A model generated the notes under the pieces. That model searched no databases. It saw only the letters and a program-made list of their open reading frames with translations, and was not told the origin of the DNA. 64,000 nucleotides of DNA from Herpetosiphon gulosus (GTDB lineage Bacteria; Chloroflexota; Chloroflexia; Chloroflexales; Herpetosiphonaceae), in assembly GCF_039545135.1 (NCBI RefSeq), contig NZ_BAABRU010000004.1, positions 194,427 through 258,426 of the forward strand, read 5' to 3'. Shown here piece after piece: positions 6,394-49,488 of this stretch (positions are counted from its first letter, which is position 1; the number at the start of each line of letters is the position of its first letter). The position numbers were made by a program, and so were the translations under genes.

Positions 6394-7386
6394 TCAGAGT
6401 GTCATGCGGAGCGCCTTCGCTGCAAACTCATGCATAAGCGCCTTCAATTCAGCTGGTTGCCGAATCGTAGCTGACAGATCGATCTGTAACAAGCGGTGGG
6501 CAATCGAGGTTAATTCGTAGGTTTCCCGCCGCCAAATAATCCCAACGTCGCTTTCCTCAAAGGTTCCAGCCGCTGGTGGCAGCACATGGCGCACCTGTTC
6601 GATAGTTGCTGCAAAAATAACCTCAACCGCATATGGCCCTGCCATGGTGGCCAACGTAGTGTGCATGTGTTGTAACGCATCGAAGTCTTGGGGATGCTCA
6701 AATGGCTGATTGAGCAACTTCAAGGCTTGAATGCGATCAATGCGAAATGTGCGCAGATCATTGCGTTGGTGACAATAGCCAACGCAGTACCAGTACCCCT
6801 GATAATAGACTATTCCATAGGGATCAAACACCCGTGCCGATTCCTCGCCATTGTATGTTTGATAGCTCAGCCATACCTGCTGTCGCGTATGCACCGCCAC
6901 ACTTAAGCTGGCGACGATGCTTGGCTGCAAAAAGGCAGGCGGTGGAGCAACATGAAACGTAATCGCCTCTTGGAAAGCCCTTACCTGATCAAGCAGAATT
7001 GTTGGCATAACCCGTTCAAGTTTGGCGATTGCACCCTCGATTGCGGTCGCATCAGCTGGAAATTGCAAAGCCTGAATCATGCGTAATCCCAATACCAGTG
7101 CCATGGCCTCAGCCGGATTAATCATCAGGGGCGGGATGGTATAGCCGCGCCCAAGATAGTAAGCACCATCAGGGCCGCGCTCAGCCTCAATCGGAATGCC
7201 CATATCTTGCAACATCACCACATAGCGGCGCACTGTTCGTTGGCTAATTTCGAGGCGGCTGGCAAGTTGAGCACCGCGCATCCGCTGGTGCGATTGTAAG
7301 AGTTCAAGGATGGTTAGCAAGCGGGTTGTTGGGCTATACATCGATTTATAGCTCCTTGGATTAATTAGGTCTGATTCTGACCGCAT
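6394..7386 (-). CDS. HTH + WYL domain transcriptional regulator (YafY/PafBC-like)
   Basis: N-terminal HTH (TRLLTILELLQSHQRMRGAQLASRLEISQRTVRRYVVMLQDMGIPIE) and a central WYL-type segment (YYQGYWYCVGYCHQRNDLRTFRIDRI). The true start may be the internal M at about 7341. Confidence 0.75.
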   Translation of the reverse strand: MRSESDLINPRSYKSMYSPTTRLLTILELLQSHQRMRGAQLASRLEISQRTVRRYVVMLQDMGIPIEAERGPDGAYYLGRGYTIPPLMINPAEAMALVLGLRMIQALQFPADATAIEGAIAKLERVMPTILLDQVRAFQEAITFHVAPPPAFLQPSIVASLSVAVHTRQQVWLSYQTYNGEESARVFDPYGIVYYQGYWYCVGYCHQRNDLRTFRIDRIQALKLLNQPFEHPQDFDALQHMHTTLATMAGPYAVEVIFAATIEQVRHVLPPAAGTFEESDVGIIWRRETYELTSIAHRLLQIDLSATIRQPAELKALMHEFAAKALRMTL

Positions 7387-18042: not shown

Positions 18043-19557
18043 TTATTCGGTTCGGCGCGGACGATATTGGAGTGCTTCGGCTAAATGCGCTGGTTGAATT
18101 TGCGCAAGATTGGCTAAATCGGCGATGGTTCGGGCCAATTTAAGCACGCGATGATAACTACGGGCTGAGAGTTGTAATTGTCGCATGGCGGCTTTCATCA
18201 AGCTTTGGCTCGCCGAATCTAGCTCGCAGGCATGGCGTAACTGGGCTGGCCCCATATCACTATTGGTCAATATATGGTGTTTGCCAAAACGCTCGGCTTG
18301 GCGTTGACGAGCTAAAACCACGCGATCACGAATTTGCTCCGATGGCTCGCTACTACGCACACTCGCAAGTTTTTCATACTCCAGCCGTGGCACTTCAATA
18401 TGAATATCAATCCGATCGAGCAATGGCCCTGAGATGCGTTTTTGATAACGGGCAATTGCGGCTGGCGGGCAAACGCATTGGCGGGTGGGGTCGCTATAGT
18501 AGCCACATGGGCAAGGATTCATGGCTCCTATTAGCACAAAGTTTGCCGGGAATGTTAGCGTGCCCGCTGCCCGACTAAGCACTACCGTATGATCTTCGAG
18601 CGGCTGGCGCAGCACTTCGAGCACTTGTTGGCTAAATTCCGGCATTTCGTCGAGAAATAACACCCCTCGATGAGCCAGCGAAATCTCGCCTGGCTGAGGC
18701 GTGCGGCCACCGCCAACCAAGCCAGCATTAGAAATTGTGTGGTGCGGCGCACGAAATGGTCGGGTACGAATAAAGGGCATGTCGTTGGGCAACAAGCCTT
18801 TAACTGAATAAATTTTGGTCACATCTAAGGCTTCGTCGAGGCTGAGCGGCGGCAAAATTGAAGGTACGCAGCGGGCGAGTAAGGTTTTGCCAGAACCAGG
18901 CGGGCCGCTCATCAAGACATTATGCCCACCAGCTGCGGCCACTTCCAAAGCGCGTTTCACGTGTTCTTGGCCTTTGACATCGGCAAAATCAACGTTATAG
19001 CTCAGGCTTTCGGCGGCTGGGGGCTGGCCCTCGTAGGCTTCGATGTAGCGCTCGCCATTGAGATGGGCGGCAATATCGACGATTGAACGCACTGGAATAA
19101 CGGTAATGCCACTGAGCAAGGCCGCTTCGGCTGCATCGCAATGGGGCACATAGGCGGTTTGCAAGCCTTCGCGCCGCGCAATTGTGACCATTGGTAAGAT
19201 GCCATCAGTATGCCGCACTGCGCCATCAAGCGATAGTTCGCCGACAAACAAGGCTTGGCTTACATCGGCAGCAATTTGGCCTGAGGCTAACAAAATGCCG
19301 ACGGCTATTGGTAAATCGTAGGCTGGGCCAGCTTTGCGTAAATCGGCTGGAGCCAAATTGACGGTGAGCCGCGAATCGGGAAACGAGCCGCCGCTGTTGC
19401 GCACTGCTGCTCGCACTCGCTCTTTGGCCTCCTGCACAGCGGTATCGGGCAAGCCGACAATTGTGAATGATGGCAGGCCACGACTGAGATCAACTTCGAC
19501 TTCAACTAACGCGCCATCTAAACCCACAACGGCGCAGCTCCAAACTTTCGCCAACAT
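18043..19557 (-). CDS. YifB/ComM family Mg-chelatase-like AAA+ ATPase
   Basis: Lon-like N-terminal subdomain, Walker A GPPGSGKT, Walker B LFLDEMPEF, a C4-like CPCGYYSDPTRQCVC insert, and a ChlI C-terminal region. Confidence 0.9.
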   Translation of the reverse strand: MLAKVWSCAVVGLDGALVEVEVDLSRGLPSFTIVGLPDTAVQEAKERVRAAVRNSGGSFPDSRLTVNLAPADLRKAGPAYDLPIAVGILLASGQIAADVSQALFVGELSLDGAVRHTDGILPMVTIARREGLQTAYVPHCDAAEAALLSGITVIPVRSIVDIAAHLNGERYIEAYEGQPPAAESLSYNVDFADVKGQEHVKRALEVAAAGGHNVLMSGPPGSGKTLLARCVPSILPPLSLDEALDVTKIYSVKGLLPNDMPFIRTRPFRAPHHTISNAGLVGGGRTPQPGEISLAHRGVLFLDEMPEFSQQVLEVLRQPLEDHTVVLSRAAGTLTFPANFVLIGAMNPCPCGYYSDPTRQCVCPPAAIARYQKRISGPLLDRIDIHIEVPRLEYEKLASVRSSEPSEQIRDRVVLARQRQAERFGKHHILTNSDMGPAQLRHACELDSASQSLMKAAMRQLQLSARSYHRVLKLARTIADLANLAQIQPAHLAEALQYRPRRTE

Positions 19558-19653: not shown

Positions 19654-19956
19654 TTAGTTGACAGCGACCCAATCGAGCTTTACCAATTTATCGGCGACGC
19701 TGTTCATGTCGGCACAACGGCAGGCTGGCTGGCGCTGGACAACAATTTGCCAAGCACGACAAACGGTTTGCACTGGCCAACAATCTTGGCTGGGTACTTG
19801 ATGCGCAGCACTCACATGGTTGATAATTTCTTCAGCAACCATGTAGGCATCGTTATCGTTGATGCCTTCAGCTTCGCGAACAATCACGGCTAATTGGACT
19901 ATATGGCTTGCTAATTTGAGCAAGACTCCACGGCTTTTAACACGTTCGGTTTGCAT
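19654..19956 (-). CDS. Hypothetical protein (100 aa), adjacent to the mini CRISPR array
   Basis: ORF with an AAGGA RBS upstream of ATG (MQTERVKSRGVLLKLASHIVQLAVIVREAEG...). I found no recognisable domain. Confidence 0.4.
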   Translation of the reverse strand: MQTERVKSRGVLLKLASHIVQLAVIVREAEGINDNDAYMVAEEIINHVSAAHQVPSQDCWPVQTVCRAWQIVVQRQPACRCADMNSVADKLVKLDWVAVN

Positions 19957-20059
19957 GTTCTGCGATCCTTTGGCACGAAGGATTGATAGGACGTTTATGG
20001 CAAATACCACGAATGGTATGCGTAAAAATCAATAAAAATAGCGGTACGGAATGGTATCA

Positions 20060-20170
20060 CGTACAGCTAGGCACAAATCCAACCCATTTGCTCAAGACCT
20101 TGTACTTGCTCGCCGACGGCGGCGAGGCCAAGGCGTACAGCTAGGCACAAATCCAACCCATTTGCTCAAG
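20060..20170. CRISPR. Mini CRISPR-like array: two identical 37-nt direct repeats (CGTACAGCTAGGCACAAATCCAACCCATTTGCTCAAG) separated by a 37-nt GC-rich spacer
   Basis: Exact 37/37 repeat at 20060-20096 and 20134-20170 with a unique 37-nt spacer (ACCTTGTACTTGCTCGCCGACGGCGGCGAGGCCAAGG). A 228-nt AT-rich leader-like stretch (20171-20398) lies on the high-coordinate side. Orientation is unresolved. Confidence 0.45.
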
Positions 20171-20398
20171 TAGTCGAATGCAAGGTAGAGCGTTGCTAAA
20201 GAGCATTATTATCTCTAAATCTTTCTCTTATTAATAGTAAAACATTCGTAGCCGAATTTCAATAGATTTTTGGTCAAATTATTATCCAAATAATAAATCG
20301 TTAATAAAATTTGATTATCCCAAAGCCAATAACTATTTGTACTAGCATTTGATAAATAGCACAATAGTTCTGATTATTACTCATAAGGAGATCAATTC

Positions 20399-21130
20399 AT
20401 GGCCCAATTTGCTGCTGAGTTAATTCAAACGTTGCGCCAAGCTCAATCGTTGGTGGTTTTGACAGGTTCAGGAATTTCGGCTCCCAGCGGAATACCGACC
20501 TATCGCAGTGCCGCCGCCGATGCCCGTTGGACGGCCTATGACCCTGATAAAGTTGCGACATTCGCGGGCTTTGAGCGTGATCCAGTTGGGGTTTTTCAGG
20601 TGTATCAAGCCATGAAACGCCAGTGTGAGCAGGCTCAGCCAAATGCTGGTCATTATGCACTTGCCCAGCTAGAGCAACTAGTTGGGCAATTTAAGCTATT
20701 TACTCAAAATATTGATAGTTTGCATCAACGGGCTGGCTCAAGCCAGGTTTACGAGGTGCATGGCAGTTTGGCTCGAACAATCTGTTCGCGCGAAGGCAAC
20801 TTGGTTGAAACCTGGAATCCTGAGCAGCCAATTTGCCCTAAGTGTGGTACGCCGTTGCGGCCTGATATTGTTTGGTTTGGCGAATTGTTGGATGCAGCAA
20901 TTTTGCAAGCGGCCAAAGCTGCGTTTGATACAAGCGATGTGGCTTTGGTGATTGGCACATCGGCGCTTGTTGAGCCAATTGCTTCGTTGCCACATCGAGC
21001 CTTGCGGCGCAAAAAAACGGTGATTGAAATTAACCCTGATATGCCGTTGCGGGGAATTGCGACTTTTTCGTTGGCAGGCAGCGCTGATGCGGTGTTGCCA
21101 CAATTGATTAAAGAGGTTTGGAAGCTTTAA
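20399..21130 (+). CDS. NAD-dependent protein deacylase, Sir2 family (CobB-like)
   Basis: GSGISAPSGIPTYRS NAD-binding motif, a Cys4 zinc ribbon (CSREG...CPKCG), and GTSALVEPIASLP. Confidence 0.85.
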   Translation: MAQFAAELIQTLRQAQSLVVLTGSGISAPSGIPTYRSAAADARWTAYDPDKVATFAGFERDPVGVFQVYQAMKRQCEQAQPNAGHYALAQLEQLVGQFKLFTQNIDSLHQRAGSSQVYEVHGSLARTICSREGNLVETWNPEQPICPKCGTPLRPDIVWFGELLDAAILQAAKAAFDTSDVALVIGTSALVEPIASLPHRALRRKKTVIEINPDMPLRGIATFSLAGSADAVLPQLIKEVWKL

Positions 21131-26096: not shown

Positions 26097-26855
26097 ATGA
26101 TCGATAATCGTCAGCGATTCAGCAATCGGGTGGCCGATTATGTACAGTTTCGCCCAAATTACCCTAGCGAAATATTCGTGCCCTTGCAACAACACCATGG
26201 CTTTGGCCAAAACTCAGTCGTGGCCGATATTGGAGCGGGCACGGGGATTTGGAGTGAGCAACTGCTCCAGCATGGGGCAACTGTCTATGCAATTGAACCC
26301 AACGCACCGATGCGTGAAGCCAGCTTGCAACTTACCGAGCGTTATCCCACATTTCAAGCTGTTGATGGCAGTGCCGAAACCACTGGTTTGGCCGATCAGA
26401 GCGTCAATTGGATCACGGCGGCTCAAGCATTTCACTGGTTCGAACCACAAGCAACCCGCCGCGAATGGCAACGAATTTTACGACCTGAGGGCTGGGTAGG
26501 CTTAATTTGGAACCAACGTTCGCTTGATGGCACAGCGTTTTTACAGCAATACGAAGCACTATTACACCAATTTGGCAGTGATTATGCCACCGTCAAACAT
26601 ACCAACATCGAACCGCAACGGATTGCCGATTTCTTTGGCAACCAACCAGCTTGCTACACCGCCCAAAACGCCCAATATTTTGATCAAGCTGGCTTGTTGG
26701 GTCGGGCATTTTCCTCGTCGTACACGCCCACGCCTGAACAACCCAATTATCAACTGCTACGCCAAGGCCTGATTGAGGCTTGGAAAGAGCATCAGGTTGC
26801 AGGCAAAGTGGCCTTTTTATACACAACCACGGTGTACGTCGGGCGGTTTAGCTAG
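26097..26855 (+). CDS. Class I SAM-dependent methyltransferase
   Basis: Motif I VADIGAGTGIWS, plus motif II/III spacing typical of the Methyltransf_11/25 family. Confidence 0.75.
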   Translation: MIDNRQRFSNRVADYVQFRPNYPSEIFVPLQQHHGFGQNSVVADIGAGTGIWSEQLLQHGATVYAIEPNAPMREASLQLTERYPTFQAVDGSAETTGLADQSVNWITAAQAFHWFEPQATRREWQRILRPEGWVGLIWNQRSLDGTAFLQQYEALLHQFGSDYATVKHTNIEPQRIADFFGNQPACYTAQNAQYFDQAGLLGRAFSSSYTPTPEQPNYQLLRQGLIEAWKEHQVAGKVAFLYTTTVYVGRFS

Positions 26856-26906
26856 ATTAACTGTAATATTGTTCCCTGTTCTTCTAGCCTACTACATATC
26901 CAAAAG

Positions 26907-26947
26907 CCCCTCGCCCGCCGCAGTGGGAGAGGGGTTGGGGGTGAGGG
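26907..26947. repeat. REP-like GC-rich palindromic unit, copy 2 (reverse orientation), between a convergent gene pair at the end of the cmr operon
   Basis: CCCCTCGCCCGCCGCAGTGGGAGAGGGGTTGGGGGTGAGGG is the reverse complement of the unit at 21134. Confidence 0.6.
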
Positions 26948-26962
26948 AATTCAACCAATCAG

Positions 26963-27352
26963 CTACAGTTTGGGAATCCGGCGAGTGCGGGCGACTTGAC
27001 GGATTGCATCCAAATTGCAAATCTCGCCTACCTCAAAAACGGTTGGAGTGGTATTAGGAATAGGGCGCATATTGATGATTGGCATAAAATAGCCGGAGCG
27101 CCCATGCAACTCAGCGATGACCGCCAAGGCCAATGGAGCCAAGCCTGGCGGATTGATAATAATTGGGATGGTTTGCCAATCGGCGGTTTTTAAGCCAACG
27201 CTTTCAATCAAATCGTAAGCGACCTCAGCCAAAGGCCGCATGCGGCTAACTTGGGTATCGACAAAGCGAATTTCGGGGGTTTCATCGACAAGCGCTACAA
27301 CTTGTGCAAACTGTTTATCAGTCAATGGATGGGCAAAGTTAATCAGAAGCAT
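26963..27352 (-). CDS. Small uncharacterised protein (129 aa), terminal gene of the cmr operon; possible type III accessory (Csx15/Csx16-size class; family not verified)
   Basis: Same strand, 34 nt downstream of the CARF-nuclease gene, and followed directly by the REP terminator element. No motif I can assign. Confidence 0.4.
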   Translation of the reverse strand: MLLINFAHPLTDKQFAQVVALVDETPEIRFVDTQVSRMRPLAEVAYDLIESVGLKTADWQTIPIIINPPGLAPLALAVIAELHGRSGYFMPIINMRPIPNTTPTVFEVGEICNLDAIRQVARTRRIPKL

Positions 27353-27386
27353 AGCTGTTCCTTTGTTAAATTCTACTCGAATAGTA

Positions 27387-28241
27387 TCACTTAATAATAT
27401 TTAATATTTTTGCTTTAGAATCTTCATCTATAGTAGAGCCATCAAAATTAACTGAAAGAATTTGTACATTTGATGCATCTGCAAGGGCTAATTGGGATTT
27501 CCCGGGGTTTTCCGTAATAATCAGTATTTTATTCGAATAAATACCTAAGTGTAAACCTGTTGTATTAAGTTGTCTTATACCTTCAATTTTCTTACCTTTT
27601 TCTCCAAATTTCACTTCAATAATTCCAAAATGATTACCCCTACGATAAATGACATCTAAATCTATCTGCCCTGAGAAAGACCGTACAGCTGATAAAATTT
27701 CGATATTATTTTCTTCCAATATATCTATAACTGCTTGTTCAAAAGGCTCTTTTGCTTGCTCGATAGACCAATTTCCTAAACCTAACTGAACATCTAGCCA
27801 ATCCTCTAGGGTTATACAAGGTGGTATAGAAGTTTCTTGTACTAGATGAAATTCAAAATCTTTCCAATCATATGTATACAATTTACTTTTGCCTGCTTCG
27901 CTCTCAAGATAAACCACAGGAAAGTTAAATTTCCGTGCCACTTGGGAAGCAGCAAATGACATCGGTTTTGTTCCACCAGTAACATTAAAGTAAAGCTCAT
28001 TACCTTCTTTCAGATTAGCAATACTTTCCTCTATCTGTCGGGTAATCTTTGGGATATCGTAAGAATCTGTACATATAATTTCAGTTTCAATATTTTTTGA
28101 CTTTAGAAGTGCTGCCGTATTATGAGCTTTTTTAACTGTTCCATCAGTATAAATAAGCAATGCTAAATCTGGTTCGAGGTGATAGATAGGAATAAGGTTC
28201 GGCAAAGGTTGTGCCCCAACTAGGGATAAAAGAATTTTCAT
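27387..28241 (-). CDS. CARF-domain protein with C-terminal PD-(D/E)xK-like nuclease motif (Card1/Can2-like cOA-activated effector)
   Basis: N-terminus MKILLSLVGAQPLPNLIPI is typical of CARF Rossmann starts in Card1/Can2/Csm6. C-terminus IDLDV-x12-IIEVKFGEK fits D...ExK spacing. RBS AAGGAG is present. The gene is AT-rich (about 33% GC) relative to neighbouring cmr genes. Confidence 0.6.
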   Translation of the reverse strand: MKILLSLVGAQPLPNLIPIYHLEPDLALLIYTDGTVKKAHNTAALLKSKNIETEIICTDSYDIPKITRQIEESIANLKEGNELYFNVTGGTKPMSFAASQVARKFNFPVVYLESEAGKSKLYTYDWKDFEFHLVQETSIPPCITLEDWLDVQLGLGNWSIEQAKEPFEQAVIDILEENNIEILSAVRSFSGQIDLDVIYRRGNHFGIIEVKFGEKGKKIEGIRQLNTTGLHLGIYSNKILIITENPGKSQLALADASNVQILSVNFDGSTIDEDSKAKILNIIK

Positions 28242-28307
28242 CGATGACTCCTTAAGTGAAAATAAAAATTAATGAAGAACCTTTTCAATTCATCATTAAA
28301 ATCGCTC

Positions 28308-29216
28308 TTATTTTTTATTCAAACGTTGAAGTAGGGCTTCGATTTGTTGCTCGCTCTTACACATTTCCCCAAGCTCCATCCGACCATAGCCACTTGATGT
28401 TTTGGCTCCAATGCCCATATGCGTAAGGCCATTAGCGAGCAAGGTGCGGGCGGCATTACACCAATTAGGGTCTCCGCTGAGTGCCACTAAATAGTGACCA
28501 GTTGCGCTCAGAAACGGAATAATCGTTGGACTATCCCAGTCGGCTGGCGGGGTTGAATTGCCTTGATAATACGTAGGATGATGTACAGTAATCACATCGG
28601 AATGTAAGGGACCGCCAGCTTGGGCCGTACCAGGAATATACAAGGCATCGTAAAAGCTGACACAGCCACTTAGCTCGGTTGTGCCAAATAATTCGCGATG
28701 AAATTCGCCGCCTTTGGCCCACTTTGGTGTAGCGCCATCTTCAGCTATGCCTTGACCAAGGCGTTGATGGGCAAAACTTGAGGCCAAGCCTTTCAAGCCA
28801 CTGCCTGGAATGTAAGGCAAGCCATAGGTGCGCTGCAAGGCGATTGAGTTTTCGAGCACACTCTCGGCTCCCAGCCCTACGACCATACGACCCTCGACTT
28901 TCGCCTTCAATAAACAAATATCGGGAATCTCCTTTAACGTGTTCAACCAACGGGTAAAAAATGCTCGATAGAGGTTTAATACTGGTTCTTTTCTGGCAAT
29001 CTGCGAACCTCTACAAAAATGTTCAGTTAATGGATTATCTGATGTGCATTCATCAGGTTTAACTGTAGATCCTCGGCCTAGTGCATTATTCGGACGTTGC
29101 TGATTTGCTTTATTTTCAGGATCGGGCTGTTGGGGCAAATAGCGGTCAAGCCATAAGCCTGCATGGGCTACGTTGTCTACTGTGACGTTATTTAGCCTAT
29201 CACGCCGACTATTCAT
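28308..29216 (-). CDS. cmr6: Cmr6 (type III-B Cas7-family RAMP)
   Basis: N-terminal AHAGLWLDRYL motif and G-rich loop GLPYIPGSGLKGLASS, both characteristic of Cmr6. Confidence 0.8.
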   Translation of the reverse strand: MNSRRDRLNNVTVDNVAHAGLWLDRYLPQQPDPENKANQQRPNNALGRGSTVKPDECTSDNPLTEHFCRGSQIARKEPVLNLYRAFFTRWLNTLKEIPDICLLKAKVEGRMVVGLGAESVLENSIALQRTYGLPYIPGSGLKGLASSFAHQRLGQGIAEDGATPKWAKGGEFHRELFGTTELSGCVSFYDALYIPGTAQAGGPLHSDVITVHHPTYYQGNSTPPADWDSPTIIPFLSATGHYLVALSGDPNWCNAARTLLANGLTHMGIGAKTSSGYGRMELGEMCKSEQQIEALLQRLNKK

Positions 29217-29230
29217 AAATACCTCGATGC

Positions 29231-29677
29231 TTATTGAATTGAATCAGTTGACTTAATATCAAGAATGCTTTGGGCAAAACGCTTGTACCAAAGTAATGCA
29301 TCTAAGATTTGCTGGGTACGATACATATAATCGGCTAGTTCTAATTTAGCGATGTTAGCAGCAAACTCTTGAGCTTTACAGGTAAAGCCAATGGTTATGG
29401 CAAGATGCTTTAGAAATAGGTTGATCTCTGGCTTGTCGCGTGATTGGGCGAATGCTAAAGCTTGAACTAAACCAGCACTTCTAATTAAGATTGGTAATTT
29501 ATGCGCCATCGAGCCATATACATTGCGACTGGTTTGGTGTTCTATGGCGATTTGCCTAACCTTTTCTCCCTTTGATCTAATATCTAACTCAGGATATTTT
29601 TGTAAAACTATTTCAATATGACCATGAGCCGATTTTGCATAATCTTGATCACGAGTTTGAAAGACTGGGTTACTCAT
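29231..29677 (-). CDS. cmr5: Cmr5 (type III-B small subunit, Cas11 family)
   Basis: 148-aa all-helical protein positioned between cmr4 and cmr6, with an LPILIRSAGLVQALAF core resembling Cmr5. Confidence 0.65.
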   Translation of the reverse strand: MSNPVFQTRDQDYAKSAHGHIEIVLQKYPELDIRSKGEKVRQIAIEHQTSRNVYGSMAHKLPILIRSAGLVQALAFAQSRDKPEINLFLKHLAITIGFTCKAQEFAANIAKLELADYMYRTQQILDALLWYKRFAQSILDIKSTDSIQ

Positions 29678-29687
29678 TATGCTGCTC

Positions 29688-30569
29688 CTATTTCACAATC
29701 ACGCGACAAATTCCGCGCCCGACGGTTGCCTTGCCTCCAAGCTGAATTGGTTTTTGCCACAGTCGGGGTAGCTCGGCATTGATGCTTTCTCCTAAGTCTG
29801 TTTTTGAGGCTGGTGGAGCAATCAACATCAAGCCAGTCAAAATCGATTCAGCAGGTAAGGCTTCTTCATACCAAAGTTGGCCATCAGCAACTGTTTTGGT
29901 TTCATCGTTGAGCCGAATGCGGGCGGTTATTTCGGTGGCAGTATTCAAAAGAAAACTAAACACATCATCATTGACGATGCAGAAACGCTCAACAAACATC
30001 GTTTGCCAGTCTGGTGAATCATCAAAAATGCGCGCTTTGAGCCAATCAGCCCATTGGGTCACTAGCTCAGCTTGATCCGATTGAGATTCAAAATCCAAAT
30101 CTTCTAAATAAATGTCCTTGTGCTTTTCTGATTTTGGTAAGTTTGATTTAAGTGCTGATTTTGTAGCAACAAGACATTGATCGCCATCAGGATTTTTGAT
30201 CCAGCTTGGTGGGATGTTTTCAGCCACAAGATTTTTGATTTCGCGGGCAAGGCGATTGAGAATGTAGGGCGAGGTAACCCATGCGAAGGTGCCATACAAA
30301 CTGCGCACCGGCATGCACAACAAGCGCAGATCAGAAAATTGCACAAAGCCTGCATTACCAGTGGCGTTATCTGATGCTGTTCCAAAGATTTCATCTTTAC
30401 GAGCGCCATTGTAACTATCGCGCAATGGGCCTTTGAGCGATGAGCCAGGCAAATAGGGCAAATTGGTGGCTTTTTCGCGGGCAATCGGCAAATCGATAAC
30501 TCCAGCGCCTTGGCCAGTGCCAGCATGAAGTGGTGAAAGTGCATGGACAAAAACGAGTTTGGTGGTCAT
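29688..30569 (-). CDS. cmr4: Cmr4 (type III-B Cas7 backbone RAMP)
   Basis: VHALSPLHAGTGQGAGVIDLPIARE...LPYLPGSSLKGPLRD G-rich loop and Asp-containing catalytic region typical of Cmr4. Confidence 0.85.
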   Translation of the reverse strand: MTTKLVFVHALSPLHAGTGQGAGVIDLPIAREKATNLPYLPGSSLKGPLRDSYNGARKDEIFGTASDNATGNAGFVQFSDLRLLCMPVRSLYGTFAWVTSPYILNRLAREIKNLVAENIPPSWIKNPDGDQCLVATKSALKSNLPKSEKHKDIYLEDLDFESQSDQAELVTQWADWLKARIFDDSPDWQTMFVERFCIVNDDVFSFLLNTATEITARIRLNDETKTVADGQLWYEEALPAESILTGLMLIAPPASKTDLGESINAELPRLWQKPIQLGGKATVGRGICRVIVK

Positions 30570-30639
30570 TATCGTAGCTCCTTCGCAAGATACGCTAAAA
30601 ATGCTTTGAGAACAGTATTTTTTACCTAGTAACAGTAGA

Positions 30640-32121
30640 TTATTTCGGCATTTTTTCCTTAAGATAGGCTAAAAATGCTTCAAGGATATTCCCTTCTACA
30701 GATATTGAATTTATATTAAGAACTTCATCAGCTCTCAATAAAAACCTAAGATCCTCTGGTTTCGGAGATATAGGGTGGACACTAGCCTTCAGTGATAACT
30801 TCATTTTTGGAGATAATTCGGTTCCTGATAAAATAAATGCTAAGCCAATAAGGTCTCCATTTGCACATTGGAAGGTTTTTAAGATAAGTGGGCTGGCTAA
30901 ACGCTCATTATCTTTTGTTGAATCATTGGGATTTACTAATCCAAGAGTTGTAGGACGAGGATCTAAATCTTTCCGATTAGATCCATATCTATTACCTTTA
31001 AACTGAAAAATGATTGGTAATCCAAACTGAGCACGAGGGAATGCCTTGATTATCTTATACTGCGGACTTGCTTGAACATTATCTGGATTATGATGCTTAA
31101 GATGTTGTTTTGTAATTCTACGAATCTGATTTGGTTCAGGCCAAAGACTTGTTCCATTAGTATTTTTTGCTTGCCGAAAATATTTTAATTTTTCTATCAA
31201 ATCCCTCCACATTCCAAATAAACCTTGTTTTCCTGTTTTATAAAAGATCTTAAATCGATTACTATTACTTATATCTCCTAAAATTGGTAGATCAGGATGA
31301 AAATAAGTGTTTTTATAGTATTTTGTATAATTTCCTAACAGCCAAGACTTAAAATTGTTGGCATTTTTCGGATGTTCTTTATTATCGCATCGAGTAACAG
31401 AACCAAAACCTCTTCTTGTTCTACCTCCAATGCCCCCAAAAGTTTCCCAAGCCCAGAGTGTAGCATCAACTTCAATTTTAATGCCTTTGTGATAAGTAAT
31501 CTTTAGGTTAAATATGACCTCGTTACGAATGGTTTTGATGGGGGTTTGCATTCCATATTTTTTTACGGTTTCCCTGTCAGGTTTAATTGGGAAAGATGCA
31601 TATTCATGAGCAACTTCAGATAGCCCATATGCATTAAATTTCCCTTTTGTCATTCTAATTTCATAGGGTTTCTGCTCCTCCCCATCAGAAATTATCTCAA
31701 CTGAGATTTGAATAGGAATGATATTTTTTAATTTATTATTTTCTTGATTTTGATCATCTACTAGATTACTAGAATCTTGATTCACCTTTTTCTTTTCAGA
31801 AGAGGACGAAGTGCTGGCACTACCCCAAATCTCGGCTTCTCGTTGCCGCATATCATCAAGCCGTTGAGAATCGGTAAAATTTGGATCGGTACTTCCACCA
31901 CGGATAGCACGCCACCAAAAACGCAGTTGGCCGCGAATGCCACTGGCCCGAATTCGCGTGATTGGGTCATTCACCCCAGCTTCAACCCCGCCACCAAACA
32001 ATGGGGTGATCAGCTTGTAGCTGCGGGTTTCGGTGATATAGGTTTGCCCGCCAATGGTAAATTCATTTGGTGCTTGATACTCTATAGGATCTGGTGCAGA
32101 AATAGTTGGTTTACGATTCAT
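30640..32121 (-). CDS. cmr1: Cmr1-like RAMP (Cas7 family, 493 aa)
   Basis: LITPLFGGG...IRASGIRGQLRFWWRA motifs are typical of Cmr1. It overlaps the cmr3 stop by 4 nt (translational coupling). Lower GC than cas10/cmr3. Confidence 0.65.
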   Translation of the reverse strand: MNRKPTISAPDPIEYQAPNEFTIGGQTYITETRSYKLITPLFGGGVEAGVNDPITRIRASGIRGQLRFWWRAIRGGSTDPNFTDSQRLDDMRQREAEIWGSASTSSSSEKKKVNQDSSNLVDDQNQENNKLKNIIPIQISVEIISDGEEQKPYEIRMTKGKFNAYGLSEVAHEYASFPIKPDRETVKKYGMQTPIKTIRNEVIFNLKITYHKGIKIEVDATLWAWETFGGIGGRTRRGFGSVTRCDNKEHPKNANNFKSWLLGNYTKYYKNTYFHPDLPILGDISNSNRFKIFYKTGKQGLFGMWRDLIEKLKYFRQAKNTNGTSLWPEPNQIRRITKQHLKHHNPDNVQASPQYKIIKAFPRAQFGLPIIFQFKGNRYGSNRKDLDPRPTTLGLVNPNDSTKDNERLASPLILKTFQCANGDLIGLAFILSGTELSPKMKLSLKASVHPISPKPEDLRFLLRADEVLNINSISVEGNILEAFLAYLKEKMPK

Positions 32122-33584
32122 TTGGTTACTCCCTTAATTTCAGCGAACGTCCCATCCCAAGCTCCGAGCACTGCTAACCCAAAGCCATCGCGGCGATCTT
32201 GCTCTGCATCGCTTATGCACTGCATCCAAAACTTGGTTATCCAAACTTCAATCGCAGGTTTTTCGCCTACTAGCGAGAGGAACAAGACCGTACCAGCAGG
32301 AGCTAGGCGGCGAGTTGGTTTAGGCTTATGAATTGCTAAATCCCAGCCTGAAATAGCTTGAGCACGCTTGATCGCGATTGCTTCAAGCGTTGGCTGCACC
32401 CCATCAACCTCGCGGCATAGCCAAGTTGGGCGATAGCCCTTTTCAAACATCGCTGGGGTGAGCAAAATCACGCGGCATGCTTGATCTTTTACGATTGCAT
32501 CAACGATAACTTGATCGCATGCTGGCAATGGATGCTCAGTTGGCTCCCAACGAGCCAAACGGCGCTCGCCGCCCAAGGGTGCAATGCTTGGTTGTGGAAT
32601 GCTTAAACCAGTTGTATCGCGGTAATCAGTGCTCACATATAAGGCCAAACGCTGCGCTTTGGCCAATTGTTGCTCGTTGGCTTGGGTAAAGCTTAGACCA
32701 CGAGTTTGAAACAAATGCCCATCTTCAGCTTGTTGAGTATTAGGCTGAATTTCAACATGCGTCCGTTGATCAATTGGCAAGCCTTTAATTCCCAAGTCAG
32801 TACTTTTTTGCACTAAGGAAGTTTGGGTTTGATCAATCAATGCTTCTGGATCTTGCAACCATTGCAGAAAATGTTCCCAATACCAAAATTGCGGTTGCTC
32901 TTTGGCGGGCTTACGCCGATCAACCTCGCCTGAACCAACCAAGCCAAGTTCATTAAAATCGCTGACAAACCCCGCAGGAGCCAGAATTGGCACTAAGCGG
33001 CGGAGCCAAGGCACAGATGTTGTGGGTTCTGCTGGTTGATCGTCGGATGCTTTTGCTTCGGTTTTTGATTCAGGCTCAAACAACAGTGCATCGGCAGGTG
33101 CAGGGCATAAGAATCTCAGGCTATCTTTGGTTTCGTTTGGTTCTAGCAATTCAACTAAGACTGGCCCATAAATTTGAATTGGCTGTAATTTATTTCCCTG
33201 CGCTTGATTAAACTTAGGATCTTTGTTAAATCGAAGGTTTGAAGCATAGGCAGTTTGGGAGCGAATAACCCCAGCCAAAACTGATGGCGGCGGGAACGAC
33301 TGGGTATAGGCACGTGCGCCAGGCGTATTGTTAAATGGTCGGCCATCGCGCACAATCAAGGGGTCACGCGGCTCGATGAGCCACGCTTGCTGAGTTGTAG
33401 TTTCAGCTTTGGTTGGTTGATATGAGTTTGCCTCAACTTGAATTGGTTTAGCAGGCTCACTTATTAATTCAGCTGCTTGATCGCTGCCTAGCGCTGCTGA
33501 AGTTTGCTCAACGAATTGAGTATTGGTGCTGTTTTGCTTTTTGGTTTGTTGCTTTTGCTTAGAACGTTCGCGGCGTGTAGTCAT
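32118..33584 (-). CDS. cmr3: Cmr3 (type III-B Cas5-family subunit) with low-complexity N-terminal extension
   Basis: LIEPRDPLIVRDGRPF is the hallmark Cmr3 N-terminal motif. Start assigned to the ATG at 33584 with a GGAGG RBS. The track ORF from 33674 would overlap cas10. Confidence 0.8.
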   Translation of the reverse strand: MTTRRERSKQKQQTKKQNSTNTQFVEQTSAALGSDQAAELISEPAKPIQVEANSYQPTKAETTTQQAWLIEPRDPLIVRDGRPFNNTPGARAYTQSFPPPSVLAGVIRSQTAYASNLRFNKDPKFNQAQGNKLQPIQIYGPVLVELLEPNETKDSLRFLCPAPADALLFEPESKTEAKASDDQPAEPTTSVPWLRRLVPILAPAGFVSDFNELGLVGSGEVDRRKPAKEQPQFWYWEHFLQWLQDPEALIDQTQTSLVQKSTDLGIKGLPIDQRTHVEIQPNTQQAEDGHLFQTRGLSFTQANEQQLAKAQRLALYVSTDYRDTTGLSIPQPSIAPLGGERRLARWEPTEHPLPACDQVIVDAIVKDQACRVILLTPAMFEKGYRPTWLCREVDGVQPTLEAIAIKRAQAISGWDLAIHKPKPTRRLAPAGTVLFLSLVGEKPAIEVWITKFWMQCISDAEQDRRDGFGLAVLGAWDGTFAEIKGVTK

Positions 33585-33609
33585 AGCAATCCTCCGAAAA
33601 CTTGTTGGA

Positions 33610-35421
33610 TTAATTTCCATTGGCGAGCTTTTGTGCTTCAGCAATAAATTCGGCAATAATGACTTCATCAGCAAATTGTTGAATAATGGAATGAGGCTTG
33701 GTAGTTTGATCTAATAACAAATCATCAATCATTTTGAGTAACTGCTCGGCAATATCGTCCTCAACTTTTTTACCGTTACTCGTATACTTGCGCTCAATGA
33801 TGCGTTTGGCTTCGGCGCGGAGAATACTGGCGGGCAAGTCTTTTAATCGAATAGATAAATCATGCAGTTCAAAGGCAAAACCAAGGGGAATTTGATCATA
33901 TTGATGTAACTCGATTAGGCGCGTCAGCCGCTCATATAACGAAAACTGACCTTCAGGTTTAGCCCACGATCCGGCGATAATTCGATCTGCACCGCCACGT
34001 TTGCTGAGGTTGATTGCCAACGCATTTTTGCCTTTTATGCCTTTGGCTTGCTGCTCAGCTTTACGCGCTAAATCTAAGGCATCGGATAATGGTTCGAGGT
34101 GATGGACAATTGCAATGCCGACCGAGAGTGATACCATTGGGTCAACAAGCGCCTGTTTAAAAGCAGTGGCTAAATCAGCGGCACAATCAAAGACTGTGGC
34201 TAAACGTTTATTATTACCTTCTTGAATTACGTGACTACTCGTTAGTGGTAAAAATGCTAAAACATCATCCCCGCCCGAATAGACTAAGGCTCCTTGATGG
34301 TTTTCGACGATCGACTTAACATTTCCCGCAAATCTAGTTAATTTTTCGGAAATACCTTGATGTTCATCCATCCCATGGGCGGTATTAATAAATCTTCCCA
34401 TAGCATCGCCATCAGCATGCAGAATGGCATAGTAGGGAATGGGAATTGTAGTATCTAGAAATGGTTTTAAGAAATCTTGCAGATATTTTTGAGCCTTTTT
34501 AAGATCTTCTCCTACTAAGGCATCATTGAAACGCTCGGCAAAGAGAAGTGAGCCGTCATAATACTCAAAAATATCATGGTATATCGGTGTTTTTTCGTTT
34601 TGAATATATTCTTTGGCCGATTCGAGTAATTTTAATGCACAAATATAATCCTTCCATAACCTAGTAACAGCTTTAGGATTTTTCTCACTTTGATCTAGTA
34701 AGGTTAGATAATTAAAAACAGGTGTCGCAGCTATATGTGAGGTGCTTGGAAACCTTGAATCGACACCTTTTTGACCATGCCGTTTGAGAATATCAACGCC
34801 TGATAAATGCTCACCAATATTGATTCCATACTCGCGGTACATGGTTAATTCTTGGCCTTTTAGCTCACGGTTATCAATCACCGATTCACGTTCGCCATCG
34901 ATTGAAGATTTTGGAGCGTTTGTGCCCCACGTCACCGCGCTAAAATTACGGGTATTTTTGCGAGCTGCCATCAGGTGTTCAAGCTGCTCGCGGGTTGCAC
35001 AATACACATCATCACTTGCTAAATGCAATGCAACCCAACTAAATTCAATCAAAGCAGCAATTTGAGCTTTGGCTCGGGTTTGATCAAACACACCAGTTAC
35101 TTTTGCAAACGCGCCATCGCGAATCTCATTTACACGAGTATCTAAGGCTTGTTTGGCGGCATCGGCAATCATTTTGACATCGCCCTCTACCTTGGCCAAA
35201 ATTTTGTTGGGCACATTGAAAGCGCTGTTTGGCGCTAAATCTTGGGCTGGATCGGTTGGATAGGGAAAGATCAAATTACCTTTAGCTTGATAAACGCTTT
35301 TTGCCACCGCTTTGGACAACTCGCTGAGTAGCCACGAACCAAACCAGAGGTCGCGGGTGCGGCGAGCGCTGGCGATGAAATCTTGAACTGGGCCAATCGC
35401 GATTAGGATTAAATGAGACAT
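33610..35421 (-). CDS. cas10: Cas10/Cmr2 (type III large subunit), apparently HD-less, with intact GGDD cyclase motif
   Basis: N-terminus MSHLILIAIGPVQDFIASARRTRDLWFGSWLLSEL (Cas10 palm-domain start). GGDD motif in LVYSGGDDVLAFLP. Length is only 603 aa and I found no HD motif. RBS GGGGAG is present. Confidence 0.85.
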   Translation of the reverse strand: MSHLILIAIGPVQDFIASARRTRDLWFGSWLLSELSKAVAKSVYQAKGNLIFPYPTDPAQDLAPNSAFNVPNKILAKVEGDVKMIADAAKQALDTRVNEIRDGAFAKVTGVFDQTRAKAQIAALIEFSWVALHLASDDVYCATREQLEHLMAARKNTRNFSAVTWGTNAPKSSIDGERESVIDNRELKGQELTMYREYGINIGEHLSGVDILKRHGQKGVDSRFPSTSHIAATPVFNYLTLLDQSEKNPKAVTRLWKDYICALKLLESAKEYIQNEKTPIYHDIFEYYDGSLLFAERFNDALVGEDLKKAQKYLQDFLKPFLDTTIPIPYYAILHADGDAMGRFINTAHGMDEHQGISEKLTRFAGNVKSIVENHQGALVYSGGDDVLAFLPLTSSHVIQEGNNKRLATVFDCAADLATAFKQALVDPMVSLSVGIAIVHHLEPLSDALDLARKAEQQAKGIKGKNALAINLSKRGGADRIIAGSWAKPEGQFSLYERLTRLIELHQYDQIPLGFAFELHDLSIRLKDLPASILRAEAKRIIERKYTSNGKKVEDDIAEQLLKMIDDLLLDQTTKPHSIIQQFADEVIIAEFIAEAQKLANGN

Positions 35422-35620
35422 TACAACTCCCCAAAGAACTAACTGGCAACAGAGAGTGGTATAGTTGGAGTGGCTTGGTGGAATGCTAGGAGTTAAGTCT
35501 TATCCTACCAAGGATTGTCAAGCACAGCCTGTACTAGGTATAGATGCAATTTGGCGTGATTTTTTTGCAGCCAATTTGCGCATGTTTGCTTAATTGTTGA
35601 TTAATGGTTGCCACTACCCT

Positions 35621-40894: not shown

Positions 40895-41341
40895 GAAGTT
40901 CCTAAATCTATTGTGGTAGCAATTGGGATTGCATGGGATTAATCATCGTTGAGATTAAGCTTAACACATTTTAGCCAATTGGTTATTTCACGATCTTCTC
41001 TTTGAGCCATGATATCGGTTCTCTAGCTCCTCGTTTCGCCACCCTTCCGTCCCTCCGCCGGAGGGAAACACAGTGGGTTTTCATCCCCCTGCACCCCCTA
41101 AAGTTCAATTGTTGATTTGCAGTGGTTGCCTGATGAACCTAAAGTTGTGTGATTCCCGATCTCCAGCCTTCGCGATCTTCGCGTTCTTTGCGGTTTCGGT
41201 AACTAATCTGGCAATCCCTATGATTCCAAATGTGCCCAAGATTGTGCATCAAGCATGGCCCAACTTCTGCTACAATAGAAGTGGGAACCGTGTGTTGATG
41301 CGTGCAAAGTCGCATCCTTGAGATCAAAAGGAGTCCATACA

Positions 41342-47254: not shown

Positions 47255-47553
47255 ATTGCGATATACGCTTTGTGTTTGGCGACCGTCAGCTATATCGCGA
47301 GTGGAGTATCCTCTGTAAACTAACGCACCTTACCAATTGAATCGATAAAGGGGACAAGATTCTTGGCATGCTGAGATCGCTGTAGGAATGGTAGCCATTC
47401 ATGCGACCGCTGCCAGTTGTTCAGATCAGGAATACGGTGGTTACCCCTGATGATGTATTGATACCAAGCGACTGTGTTTGACGCAGTGCTTTTATTTTTT
47501 GTGCTTAATGGACAAACGCCCACATGATTACTCAGATGGACGCTTGTTGGTTG

Positions 47554-47629
47554 TGGCTCCCTGACTAGGACTCGAACCTAGGACATGCTGATTAACAGTC
47601 AACCGCTCTACCAACTGAGCTATCAGGGA
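47554..47629 (-). tRNA. tRNA-Asn (anticodon GTT), CCA encoded
   Basis: Reverse complement folds as a cloverleaf: acceptor TCCCTGA/TCAGGGA, D-arm GCTC-AGTTGGTA-GAGC, anticodon loop CTGTTAA, T-arm CTAGG-TTCGAGT-CCTAG, discriminator G, then CCA. Confidence 0.85.
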
Positions 47630-47650
47630 TTATGCATTTGTAAAAAGAAG

Positions 47651-47695
47651 TGGCTCCCTGACTAGGACTCGAACCTAGGACCCATTGATTAACAG
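47651..47695 (-). repeat. 45-nt duplicate of the tRNA-Asn 3' end (from anticodon loop to CCA, 2-4 mismatches in the variable loop): candidate att site of the integrated element
   Basis: TGGCTCCCTGACTAGGACTCGAACCTAGGAC..TGATTAACAG matches 47554-47598 of the intact tRNA. It lacks the 5' half, so it is not a second gene. Confidence 0.6.
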
Positions 47696-48624: not shown

Positions 48625-49488
48625 ATGATTACGCAATGGATCGAAGAATATTTGTCCGCCAAAATCGCCGAACGCCGCAGCCCTGCTACCATCACTACCT
48701 ACCGTATCCGGTTAGGACGGTTTGGTGCTTGGGTCGTTGAACAACCCAATCAGGTGCTCACTCGTGCGTTATTGCGGGCCTACAGTGCGTACTTAGCCCA
48801 ACAAAACATCAGCATTGCCAGTCACTATAGTTATCTCAACGATGCCCTCGTCCTCGTGCGCTGGCTTGCTGAAGAAGGTTATATTCAACCCATTAAGACC
48901 GATAAACTCAAACCCCGATTACCCAAGCGCTTGCCTGCCCACTACACGATGGATCAAATTAAGCGCCTCCTGCTGGTTGCCGAGCTTCGTGAAAAAGCCA
49001 TGCTCTGTGTCTTACTGGATACCGGCGTTCGGGTCAGTGAACTGATTCAACTCCGCCGGACTAGCTTTGACTCGGAAGGCTGCGCCATGATTCTTGGCAA
49101 AGGCAGCAAGGATCGGTATATCTGGATTTCATCCGTGACCCAAGAAGTCCTTCGAACCTACATCGCCAGTCGGACGGATACGAACCCTGCGCTGTTTGTC
49201 AGCCATCGCCAGCAAAAAACGCTGACGATTAGCGGCGTACACCAGAGCTTCGATCGCTTAGCCTCCGACGCGGAGATCCGCAACGATGTGCGGCGTTTGA
49301 TTCACTCCTTTCGTGCCACCTTCGCCCGCGAACTGATCAAGAAAGGCCTTGATGCAGAAAGTCTACGGGTGTTGATGGGCCATGAAACGATTCAAATGTC
49401 TCTGCACTATGCACAACTCTCATCCCATGAGGCGACCCAAAATCGGCAAGGCGTGAACCTCCTCGAGAAGGTGGAGTCATGCTTATAA
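48625..49488 (+). CDS. Tyrosine recombinase/integrase (XerC/D-like)
   Basis: N-terminal SAM-like domain. Catalytic-domain motifs DTGVRVSEL (R), KGSKDR (K), HSFRATFA (HxxR), LMGHETIQMSLHYAQLS (catalytic Y). Confidence 0.85.
   Translation: MITQWIEEYLSAKIAERRSPATITTYRIRLGRFGAWVVEQPNQVLTRALLRAYSAYLAQQNISIASHYSYLNDALVLVRWLAEEGYIQPIKTDKLKPRLPKRLPAHYTMDQIKRLLLVAELREKAMLCVLLDTGVRVSELIQLRRTSFDSEGCAMILGKGSKDRYIWISSVTQEVLRTYIASRTDTNPALFVSHRQQKTLTISGVHQSFDRLASDAEIRNDVRRLIHSFRATFARELIKKGLDAESLRVLMGHETIQMSLHYAQLSSHEATQNRQGVNLLEKVESCL

Follow-up and report, generated by a model that had tools for sequence, protein, structure and literature searches.

A foreign 37-bp insert within an exact 37-bp target duplication in Herpetosiphon gulosus: a candidate natural neo-CRISPR

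What produces a perfect repeat-spacer-repeat structure at a site where related genomes carry the repeat only once? The question is raised by a 64,000-nucleotide stretch of Herpetosiphon gulosus DNA (contig NZ_BAABRU010000004.1, positions 194,427 to 258,426), hereafter called the window, in which two copies of the 37-nt sequence CGTACAGCTAGGCACAAATCCAACCCATTTGCTCAAG, 100% identical and 74 nt apart from start to start, enclose a single spacer. An earlier note on this DNA had proposed an orphan CRISPR mini-array with an AT-rich leader, the only candidate source of CRISPR RNA (crRNA) in the window for a nearby type III-B cmr operon. The comparison with relatives led us to a different reading, in which we have moderate confidence: the structure would be a one-spacer 'neo-CRISPR', natural and recent, generated by a single off-target Cas1-Cas2 spacer integration.

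The geometry described in the earlier note is accurate. The two copies are identical as stated, and the unique spacer is indeed GC-rich (67.6% GC in our measurement). The bases bordering the two copies differ on either side, so that the repeat is exactly 37 nt long and the spacer exactly 37 nt. The element lies, as reported, between a 100-aa gene and a 228-nt AT-rich stretch, for which we measured 28.1% GC (24-27% in 100-nt windows), and the cmr operon is complete and 7.2 kb away, close to the 7 kb first estimated. The background composition had been overestimated: the window has 48.9% GC and not 55-60%. Taking direct repeats of 23-55 nt around a unique spacer of similar size as the definition of a CRISPR array, the locus represents its minimum case, that of one spacer. 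No third copy of the repeat could be detected in the window at up to 3 mismatches (0 of 100 shuffles gave any match), the spacer occurs there once, and the window contains neither array-like repeats beyond 20060-20170 nor cas1, cas2 or cas6 genes. Coordinates of the features are given in Table 1.

Relatives with the same gene order were gathered through the contigs of the homologue clusters of the 100-aa protein and by scans with a conserved 19-mer of the 37-mer region. Four independent ones were obtained: a Chloroflexia metagenome-assembled genome (MAG; L001/L007), H. llansteffanensis (L008), H. aurantiacus DSM 785 (L009) and the 604-kb JGI metagenome contig Ga0209460_1000007 (L016). In all four, the intergenic region aligns from end to end with that of the window, AT-rich stretch included, and comprises one 37-mer and no insert. 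The window differs from them by a clean insertion of 74 bp, which consists of the spacer and a duplicate 37-mer. Neither window copy departs at any position from the one present in DSM 785, with which the region shares 91-94% nucleotide identity; the orthologous 37-mer shows 1 difference in H. llansteffanensis and 4 in the Chloroflexia MAG. At the sequence level, these alignments show that the 74 bp are a derived insertion confined to the window lineage, made of a 37-bp insert and an exact 37-bp target duplication. The identity of the two copies with each other suggests that the event was recent. A contig of 503 bp from an ENA metagenome (L006, 95.6% identical to the window) ends exactly at the border between the 37-mer and its downstream sequence, at window position 20059|20060, which may be due either to variation among strains at the site or to low coverage.

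The polarity could in principle be reversed, the repeat-spacer-repeat being ancestral and each relative having lost one unit. Recombination between direct repeats of 37 bp would indeed remove exactly one repeat and one spacer. Such a scenario requires, however, at least two to three independent and precise losses where one gain suffices, so that parsimony strongly favours a gain in the window lineage. Moreover, the window copies are identical in spite of the divergence of the orthologous 37-mer among species, and the first origin of the structure would still be left unexplained. We therefore give very little credence to this scenario.

The distribution of the 37-mer bears directly on its nature. 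Among 185,579 species genomes, its conserved 19-mer ATTTGTGCCTAGCTGTACG was detected at the syntenic site only, once per genome; the same scan returned one match in the JGI metagenomes and none in IMG/VR. The genome set comprises no H. gulosus assembly, and for this strain the search covered the window. Judged from this distribution, the 37-mer is a native non-coding sequence and not a CRISPR repeat family. The search for a parent array which the earlier note had recommended thus yielded, over genomes, metagenomes and viral contigs, syntenic single copies alone. The view of the locus as an orphan of a repeat family has to be abandoned, since outside the window the collections searched contain the repeat only as a single orthologous copy in relatives, the very outcome which that note had named as speaking against its proposal.

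Without the insertion, the intergenic region shares 97.3-97.6% identity with those of DSM 785 and L016 whereas the flanking genes are 91-94% identical, which indicates that constraint acts on the region. The minus strand has a promoter-like TTGAAA-17-TACTAT motif (20262..20234), kept in relatives. After it come a first hairpin, in which two pairs are compensatory, and then a second, terminator-like hairpin, with arms AGCUGUACG and CGUACCGCU, a loop of 11 nt and a run of U after it (20068..20024). The stem of the latter is conserved across species while its loop is variable, and one change fits a G-U pair on the minus-strand RNA. A simple terminator scan overlooked this hairpin because it permits loops of 3-8 nt only. 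The hairpin is native and the insertion leaves it intact. On the plus strand, a promoter-like TTGATA-17-GATTAT motif is located at 20349..20377. No Rfam family was matched by the window or by the uninserted DSM 785 locus, and the overall fold of the element shows no unusual stability. From four sequences, we tentatively consider the conserved element (20024-20262, minus strand), which is also present in L009 (about 6520-6715), L008 and L001, as a new small RNA or as the 5' leader of the 100-aa gene. The AT-rich flank had been taken for a CRISPR leader; this assignment does not hold, as the flank is kept in four relatives that have no array and has promoter-like sites for the divergent genes on its two sides.

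The lengths found in the window can be compared with those of true Herpetosiphon arrays. The type I-B modules of the genus encode Cst1, DevR/Cas7, Cas5, Cas3, Cas6, Cas1, Cas2 and Cas4, and members of their Cas1 cluster (at least 90% identity) come from H. aurantiacus (plasmid pHAU01), H. giganteus, H. llansteffanensis and Herpetosiphon sp. NSE202. The pHAU01 array of DSM 785 contains 100 identical 37-nt repeats (ATTTCAATTACTCGATCCGATTAGAGGATACTGAAAC) and spacers of 33-38 nt, 16 of which are 37 nt long; that of H. giganteus is built likewise, its repeats measuring 37 nt and its spacers 32-38 nt. Within the pHAU01 array (L012, 6675-6999), a 144-bp stretch spanning two repeat-spacer units recurs as 2.3 perfect copies, an internal spacer duplication. 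The window duplication thus has the repeat length of the genus and the 37-bp insert falls inside the 32-38 nt range, the reference for both lengths being the two arrays of relatives.

The likeness to the canonical Herpetosiphon type I-B arrays of pHAU01 and H. giganteus is limited to these two lengths: the window locus has an unrelated, locus-private repeat, a single spacer and no adjacent cas genes. Aligned in register, its 37-mer agrees with the canonical repeat at only 10-11 of 37 positions. The latter ends at its 3' side with ...GGATACTGAAAC, its last 8 nt being directly adjoined by a small ATCC/GGAT stem. The window 37-mer ends with ...CCTAGCTGTACG, has its sole stem well upstream of the Cas6-type position and carries no 3' ACUGAAAC handle. 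The earlier note had already remarked upon the unusual 3' end; the repeat bears no relation to the 37-nt repeat of Herpetosiphon and lacks the ...ACTGAAAC terminus.

An exact target duplication around a short foreign insert is the signature of transposase-like integration. To our knowledge, Cas1-Cas2 are the only integrases that duplicate targets of about 37 bp, the duplicated unit being the repeat, and we know of no transposase with target duplications longer than about 15 bp. The foreign character of the insert was assessed by local alignment with the flanks of +/-500 nt on both strands, the best score being 16 for a shuffle mean of 15.96; no significant partial match was detected elsewhere in the window, cmr region included. 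These comparisons show that the insert is foreign to the locus and has no local template. The locus thus combines single-copy empty sites, a duplication and an insert whose lengths fit the ruler, and a non-local insert. The CRISPR-like geometry stressed by the earlier note stands in this respect, the 37/37/37 lengths making the CRISPR adaptation machinery the best candidate maker of the structure.

The event would have proceeded as follows. The target would be an ordinary stretch of the conserved non-coding region upstream of the 100-aa gene. There, the integrase would make two staggered strand-transfer cuts 37 bp apart, the ruler length set by its own 37-bp repeat. A 37-bp prespacer would be joined between the cuts, and gap repair would then duplicate the 37-bp target. 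We infer that Cas1-Cas2 catalysed the insertion and that this strain has or had a type I-B Cas1-Cas2-Cas4 module. That off-target integration can create new repeat-spacer-repeat units is an established phenomenon, reportedly shown by Nivala, Shipman & Church (Nat Microbiol 2018), and off-target sites sharing features with repeats have likewise been observed in vitro for Pyrococcus furiosus (PMC6698737). We compared the window target with the canonical junction formed by 10 nt of the leader and the repeat: on the minus strand and with a shift of 1 nt, 24 of 47 positions match, which ranks in the top 0.017% of window positions. Once offsets, strands and leader lengths are taken into account, the p-value of this similarity is of the order of 0.002-0.01, suggestive at best.

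Several observations weigh against the integration of a spacer. The likeness of the target to the canonical junction is seen at offset -1 only, the true register (offset 0) showing none. The insert is a strong imperfect palindrome, predicted to form a hairpin of -16.9 kcal/mol; in a set of 151 canonical Herpetosiphon spacers no member is as stable (minimum -15.0 kcal/mol), and only 0.4% of random window 37-mers and 2% of the GC-rich ones attain this value. The integration model does not account for so strong a hairpin, which allows for another origin. No protospacer could be found by blastn of the 111-nt repeat-spacer-repeat unit in the INPHARED phages and PLSDB plasmids, where GC-rich chance matches alone were returned (E around 1), by sub-words of the spacer in IMG/VR, where two loci match a 20-mer only, by chance, and diverge directly beyond it, or by a scan of the JGI metagenomes with a 20-mer of the spacer. 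The spacer search that the earlier note had recommended thus recovered no target from any of these collections, and the window offered no significant self-match either. Finally, the search of this strain was that of the window, so that its cas1-cas2 genes and its arrays are deduced from relatives, and the named lineages of the Herpetosiphon type I-B Cas1 cluster do not include H. gulosus. On the side of integration, neither the window nor the fetched loci, which amount to about 0.45 Mb, contain a second copy of the hairpin motif of the insert, and no comparable repeat-spacer-repeat was detected in the approximately 450 kb of fetched DNA outside true arrays.

The palindromic insert leads us to consider a remnant of site-specific integration of the attachment (att) type, in which an element with 37 bp identical to the chromosomal site would have integrated, yielding attL and attR copies, and then been deleted almost entirely, down to 37 bp, or else an unrecognised insertion process or mobile hairpin with duplications of 37 bp. 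Inserts of this kind are atypical for spacers, integrases often hit the 3' parts of small RNA genes, the 37-mer ends within the terminator-like hairpin, and the window holds another att-type partial duplication, at a tRNA-Asn beside an integrase gene. As in the attL/attR cores of tyrosine-recombinase integration, native direct repeats surround inserted DNA, and the target overlaps the 3' portion of what may be a small RNA or leader. Unlike these cores, however, the locus has an insert of 37 bp with no element left, and its two lengths are both those of the CRISPR ruler. Two coincidences would thus be needed, a core having the genus repeat length of 37 bp and a remnant falling within the 32-38 nt range. 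In addition, the copies are 100% identical, compared with 91% for the att copies of the tRNA, the insert and its hairpin motif were encountered nowhere else in the fetched Herpetosiphon DNA, in IMG/VR or in the JGI metagenomes, and the duplication exceeds the length limit given above for transposases. We consider such a remnant or unknown insertion process, the main rival reading, unlikely. Replication slippage or template switching, which would yield a local duplication with filler DNA and involve no integrase, appears quite improbable. It is promoted by direct repeats and hairpins, and the insert folds on itself; but its expected outcome is tandem copies with no foreign insert, the insert resembles neither the flanks nor the remaining window beyond the chance level reported above, and the borders of the repeat are sharp, with microhomology absent on both sides. 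The fallback of the earlier note, a simple direct repeat or protein-binding site, is likewise inadequate because of the foreign 37-bp insert lying between the copies.

Two further possibilities would give the structure a role as an array. As a true orphan mini-array led by the AT-rich stretch, it would supply crRNA to the neighbouring type III-B Cmr complex. The CRISPR-like lengths, the complete cmr operon nearby, the lack of any other array in the window and a promoter-like site of the AT-rich flank directed into the array would all be in keeping with this. The relatives tell otherwise. An orthologous cmr operon occupies the same slot, with a Ser/Thr kinase-FHA gene on one side and a methyltransferase gene on the other, both in H. 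llansteffanensis and in GCA_020161265.1 (L020), the Cas10 of which (P0124) is also on record on a contig of 604,596 bp (L016 is likewise 604 kb); both H. llansteffanensis (L008) and the L016 contig have a single-copy 37-mer. Conversely, the Chloroflexia MAG is devoid of the cmr operon (an 8.7-kb module) and yet keeps the same conserved intergenic region. The single 37-mer beside orthologous cmr operons and the MAG region with no cmr indicate that the mini-array is not a component of the cmr module, to which the earlier note had tied it. Considering also that no array with this repeat was found in any collection searched, that the supposed leader is kept where there is no array, that the repeat is so distant from the canonical one and lacks its ACTGAAAC end, and that there is no cas6 in the window, we judge a guide-producing orphan array very improbable. 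Even less probable, in our opinion, is a regulatory mini-array, whose crRNA-like RNA would have a spacer partly matching a cas promoter. Mini-arrays with two repeats and one spacer near cas genes are a known class, with system-derived repeats, conserved positions and spacers partly matching cas or toxin promoters (Shmakov et al. 2023, PMC10120712). They sit in or next to cas loci, and the type III cases were judged degraded and non-functional (PMC10120712). Beyond the two repeats, the single spacer and the proximity to cas genes, the window locus displays none of these traits: its repeat is unrelated to the canonical one, its spacer has no significant partial match in the window, cmr included, and the structure is absent from the relatives having the same cmr operon.

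If off-target integration is retained as the origin, the neo-array would be unlikely to act as a guide, since the neo-repeat is unlike the canonical repeat and has neither a 3' handle nor an in-register Cas6-type hairpin, and since the spacer has no target in the window. Should the predicted minus-strand promoter be real, the insertion would probably be transcribed within the 5' leader of the 100-aa gene, to which it would add a hairpin of -17 kcal/mol. We see only a slight chance that the array is already in use at birth, its leader-promoter transcript being processed for Cmr or its hairpin rewiring the leader of the 100-aa gene, or that it was made by a hairpin mini-element producing 37-bp duplications independently of Cas1.

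The closest known counterparts remain the neo-CRISPR loci. As reportedly described in 2018 (Nivala, Shipman & Church), these loci resemble the present one in the spacer-sized insert, the duplication of ordinary sequence over the repeat length (here, that of the genus) and the empty-site comparators; their target has only a weak likeness to a leader-repeat junction, and the likeness seen in the window is suggestive at best. The window locus differs in being a natural event, in its host phylum (Chloroflexota), in its 37-bp geometry and in its position within a conserved non-coding element. The laboratory cases reportedly involved over-expressed E. coli type I-E Cas1-Cas2 and duplications of 28 bp, and the evidence for natural cases is said to have been circumstantial.

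Table 1. Positions of the insertion, of the conserved non-coding features and of neighbouring genes in the window
Feature	Position	Strand	Remarks
ComM/YifB-like ATPase	18043-19557	-	
Herpetosiphon-specific 100-aa gene	19654-19956	-	Downstream of the element; gene record P0001 has the same length
Terminator-like hairpin	20024..20068	-	AGCTGTACG, 11-nt loop, CGTACCGCT (20068..20040), then ATTTTTATTGATTTTT (20039..20024)
Copy 2 of the duplicated 37-mer	20060..20096	-	5' arm of the conserved terminator-like hairpin lies in its final 9 nt (20068..20060)
37-bp insert ('spacer')	20097..20133	-	Minus-strand sequence CCTTGGCCTCGCCGCCGTCGGCGAGCAAGTACAAGGT; absent from four relatives
Copy 1 of the duplicated 37-mer	20134..20170	-	Read first on the minus strand, AT-rich side; 37/37 identical to the DSM 785 single copy
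AT-rich divergent promoter region separating sir2/cobB from the 100-aa gene	20171..20398	.	Kept in relatives that have no array
Sir2-family NAD-dependent deacylase (CobB-like)	20399-21130	+	Transcribed away from the AT-rich region
Type III-B cmr operon	27387-35421	-	Cas10/Cmr2, Cmr3, Cmr1, Cmr4, 148-aa Cmr5 candidate, Cmr6 and CARF gene

Among the neighbouring genes, that of the 100-aa protein is specific to the genus: just two homologue clusters were found among 5.8 billion proteins, in Herpetosiphon-like genomes only. The protein has four conserved cysteines and a predicted helical model (predicted local distance difference test, pLDDT, 80.5; predicted template modelling score, pTM, 0.71), with no Pfam or NCBIfam match; comparison with the PDB gave no match by sequence and no significant one by fold. 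The window Cas10 matches the Herpetosiphon gulosus protein GAA5527593.1 (WP_345721214.1) at 100% identity. The cmr slot (window 26855-35586; operon also present in L020 and L022) is a single syntenic one across Herpetosiphon, but Cas10 identity between genomes is only 79% and 63%, compared with about 94% and 87% in their flanks. In H. llansteffanensis, an additional 437-aa gene with an MJ1674_2nd domain is located between cmr6 and the CARF gene. The CARF protein of the window (27387-28241, minus strand) comprises a Card1-type CARF domain at residues 3-121; its C-terminal half has no family match and may be an uncharacterised effector domain. At the cmr1/cmr4 junction, a 39-nt repeat is found at 30587-30625 and 30661-30699 (74% identical overall, 19/20 over the first 20 nt), one copy being intergenic and the other lying in the 3' end of cmr1; here too the start-to-start distance is 74 nt.

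Other repeated sequences were noticed at larger distances from the locus. A 46-nt partial copy of the 3' half of the tRNA-Asn gene (47554-47629, minus strand), 91% identical, is located 20 nt upstream of it (both within 47553-47695), and a tyrosine integrase gene (48625-49488) is found 1 kb from this tRNA gene; the partial copy is likely the att scar of an integrated element extending rightward. Upstream of a superoxide dismutase gene, an element of 67 bp (41035-41101) is 94% identical to two copies in the Chloroflexia MAG (L001, 8630-8696 and 8809-8875), which are located between sir2 and an acyltransferase gene. It looks like a small dispersed repeat of this lineage.

If the neo-CRISPR reading is true, the locus adds a further natural example to a phenomenon already known. 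The origin of new CRISPR arrays and repeat families has so far been argued mostly from laboratory over-expression, and the window would provide a natural case with a clear direction, four empty sites being opposed to one filled site. The locus also calls for caution in the annotation of two-repeat 'orphan arrays' near type III loci, which can be integration scars and not guide sources; a test of flank conservation separates the two. For Herpetosiphon itself, the neo-CRISPR reading would imply that adaptation integrases scar ordinary, and even conserved, non-coding DNA outside model organisms.

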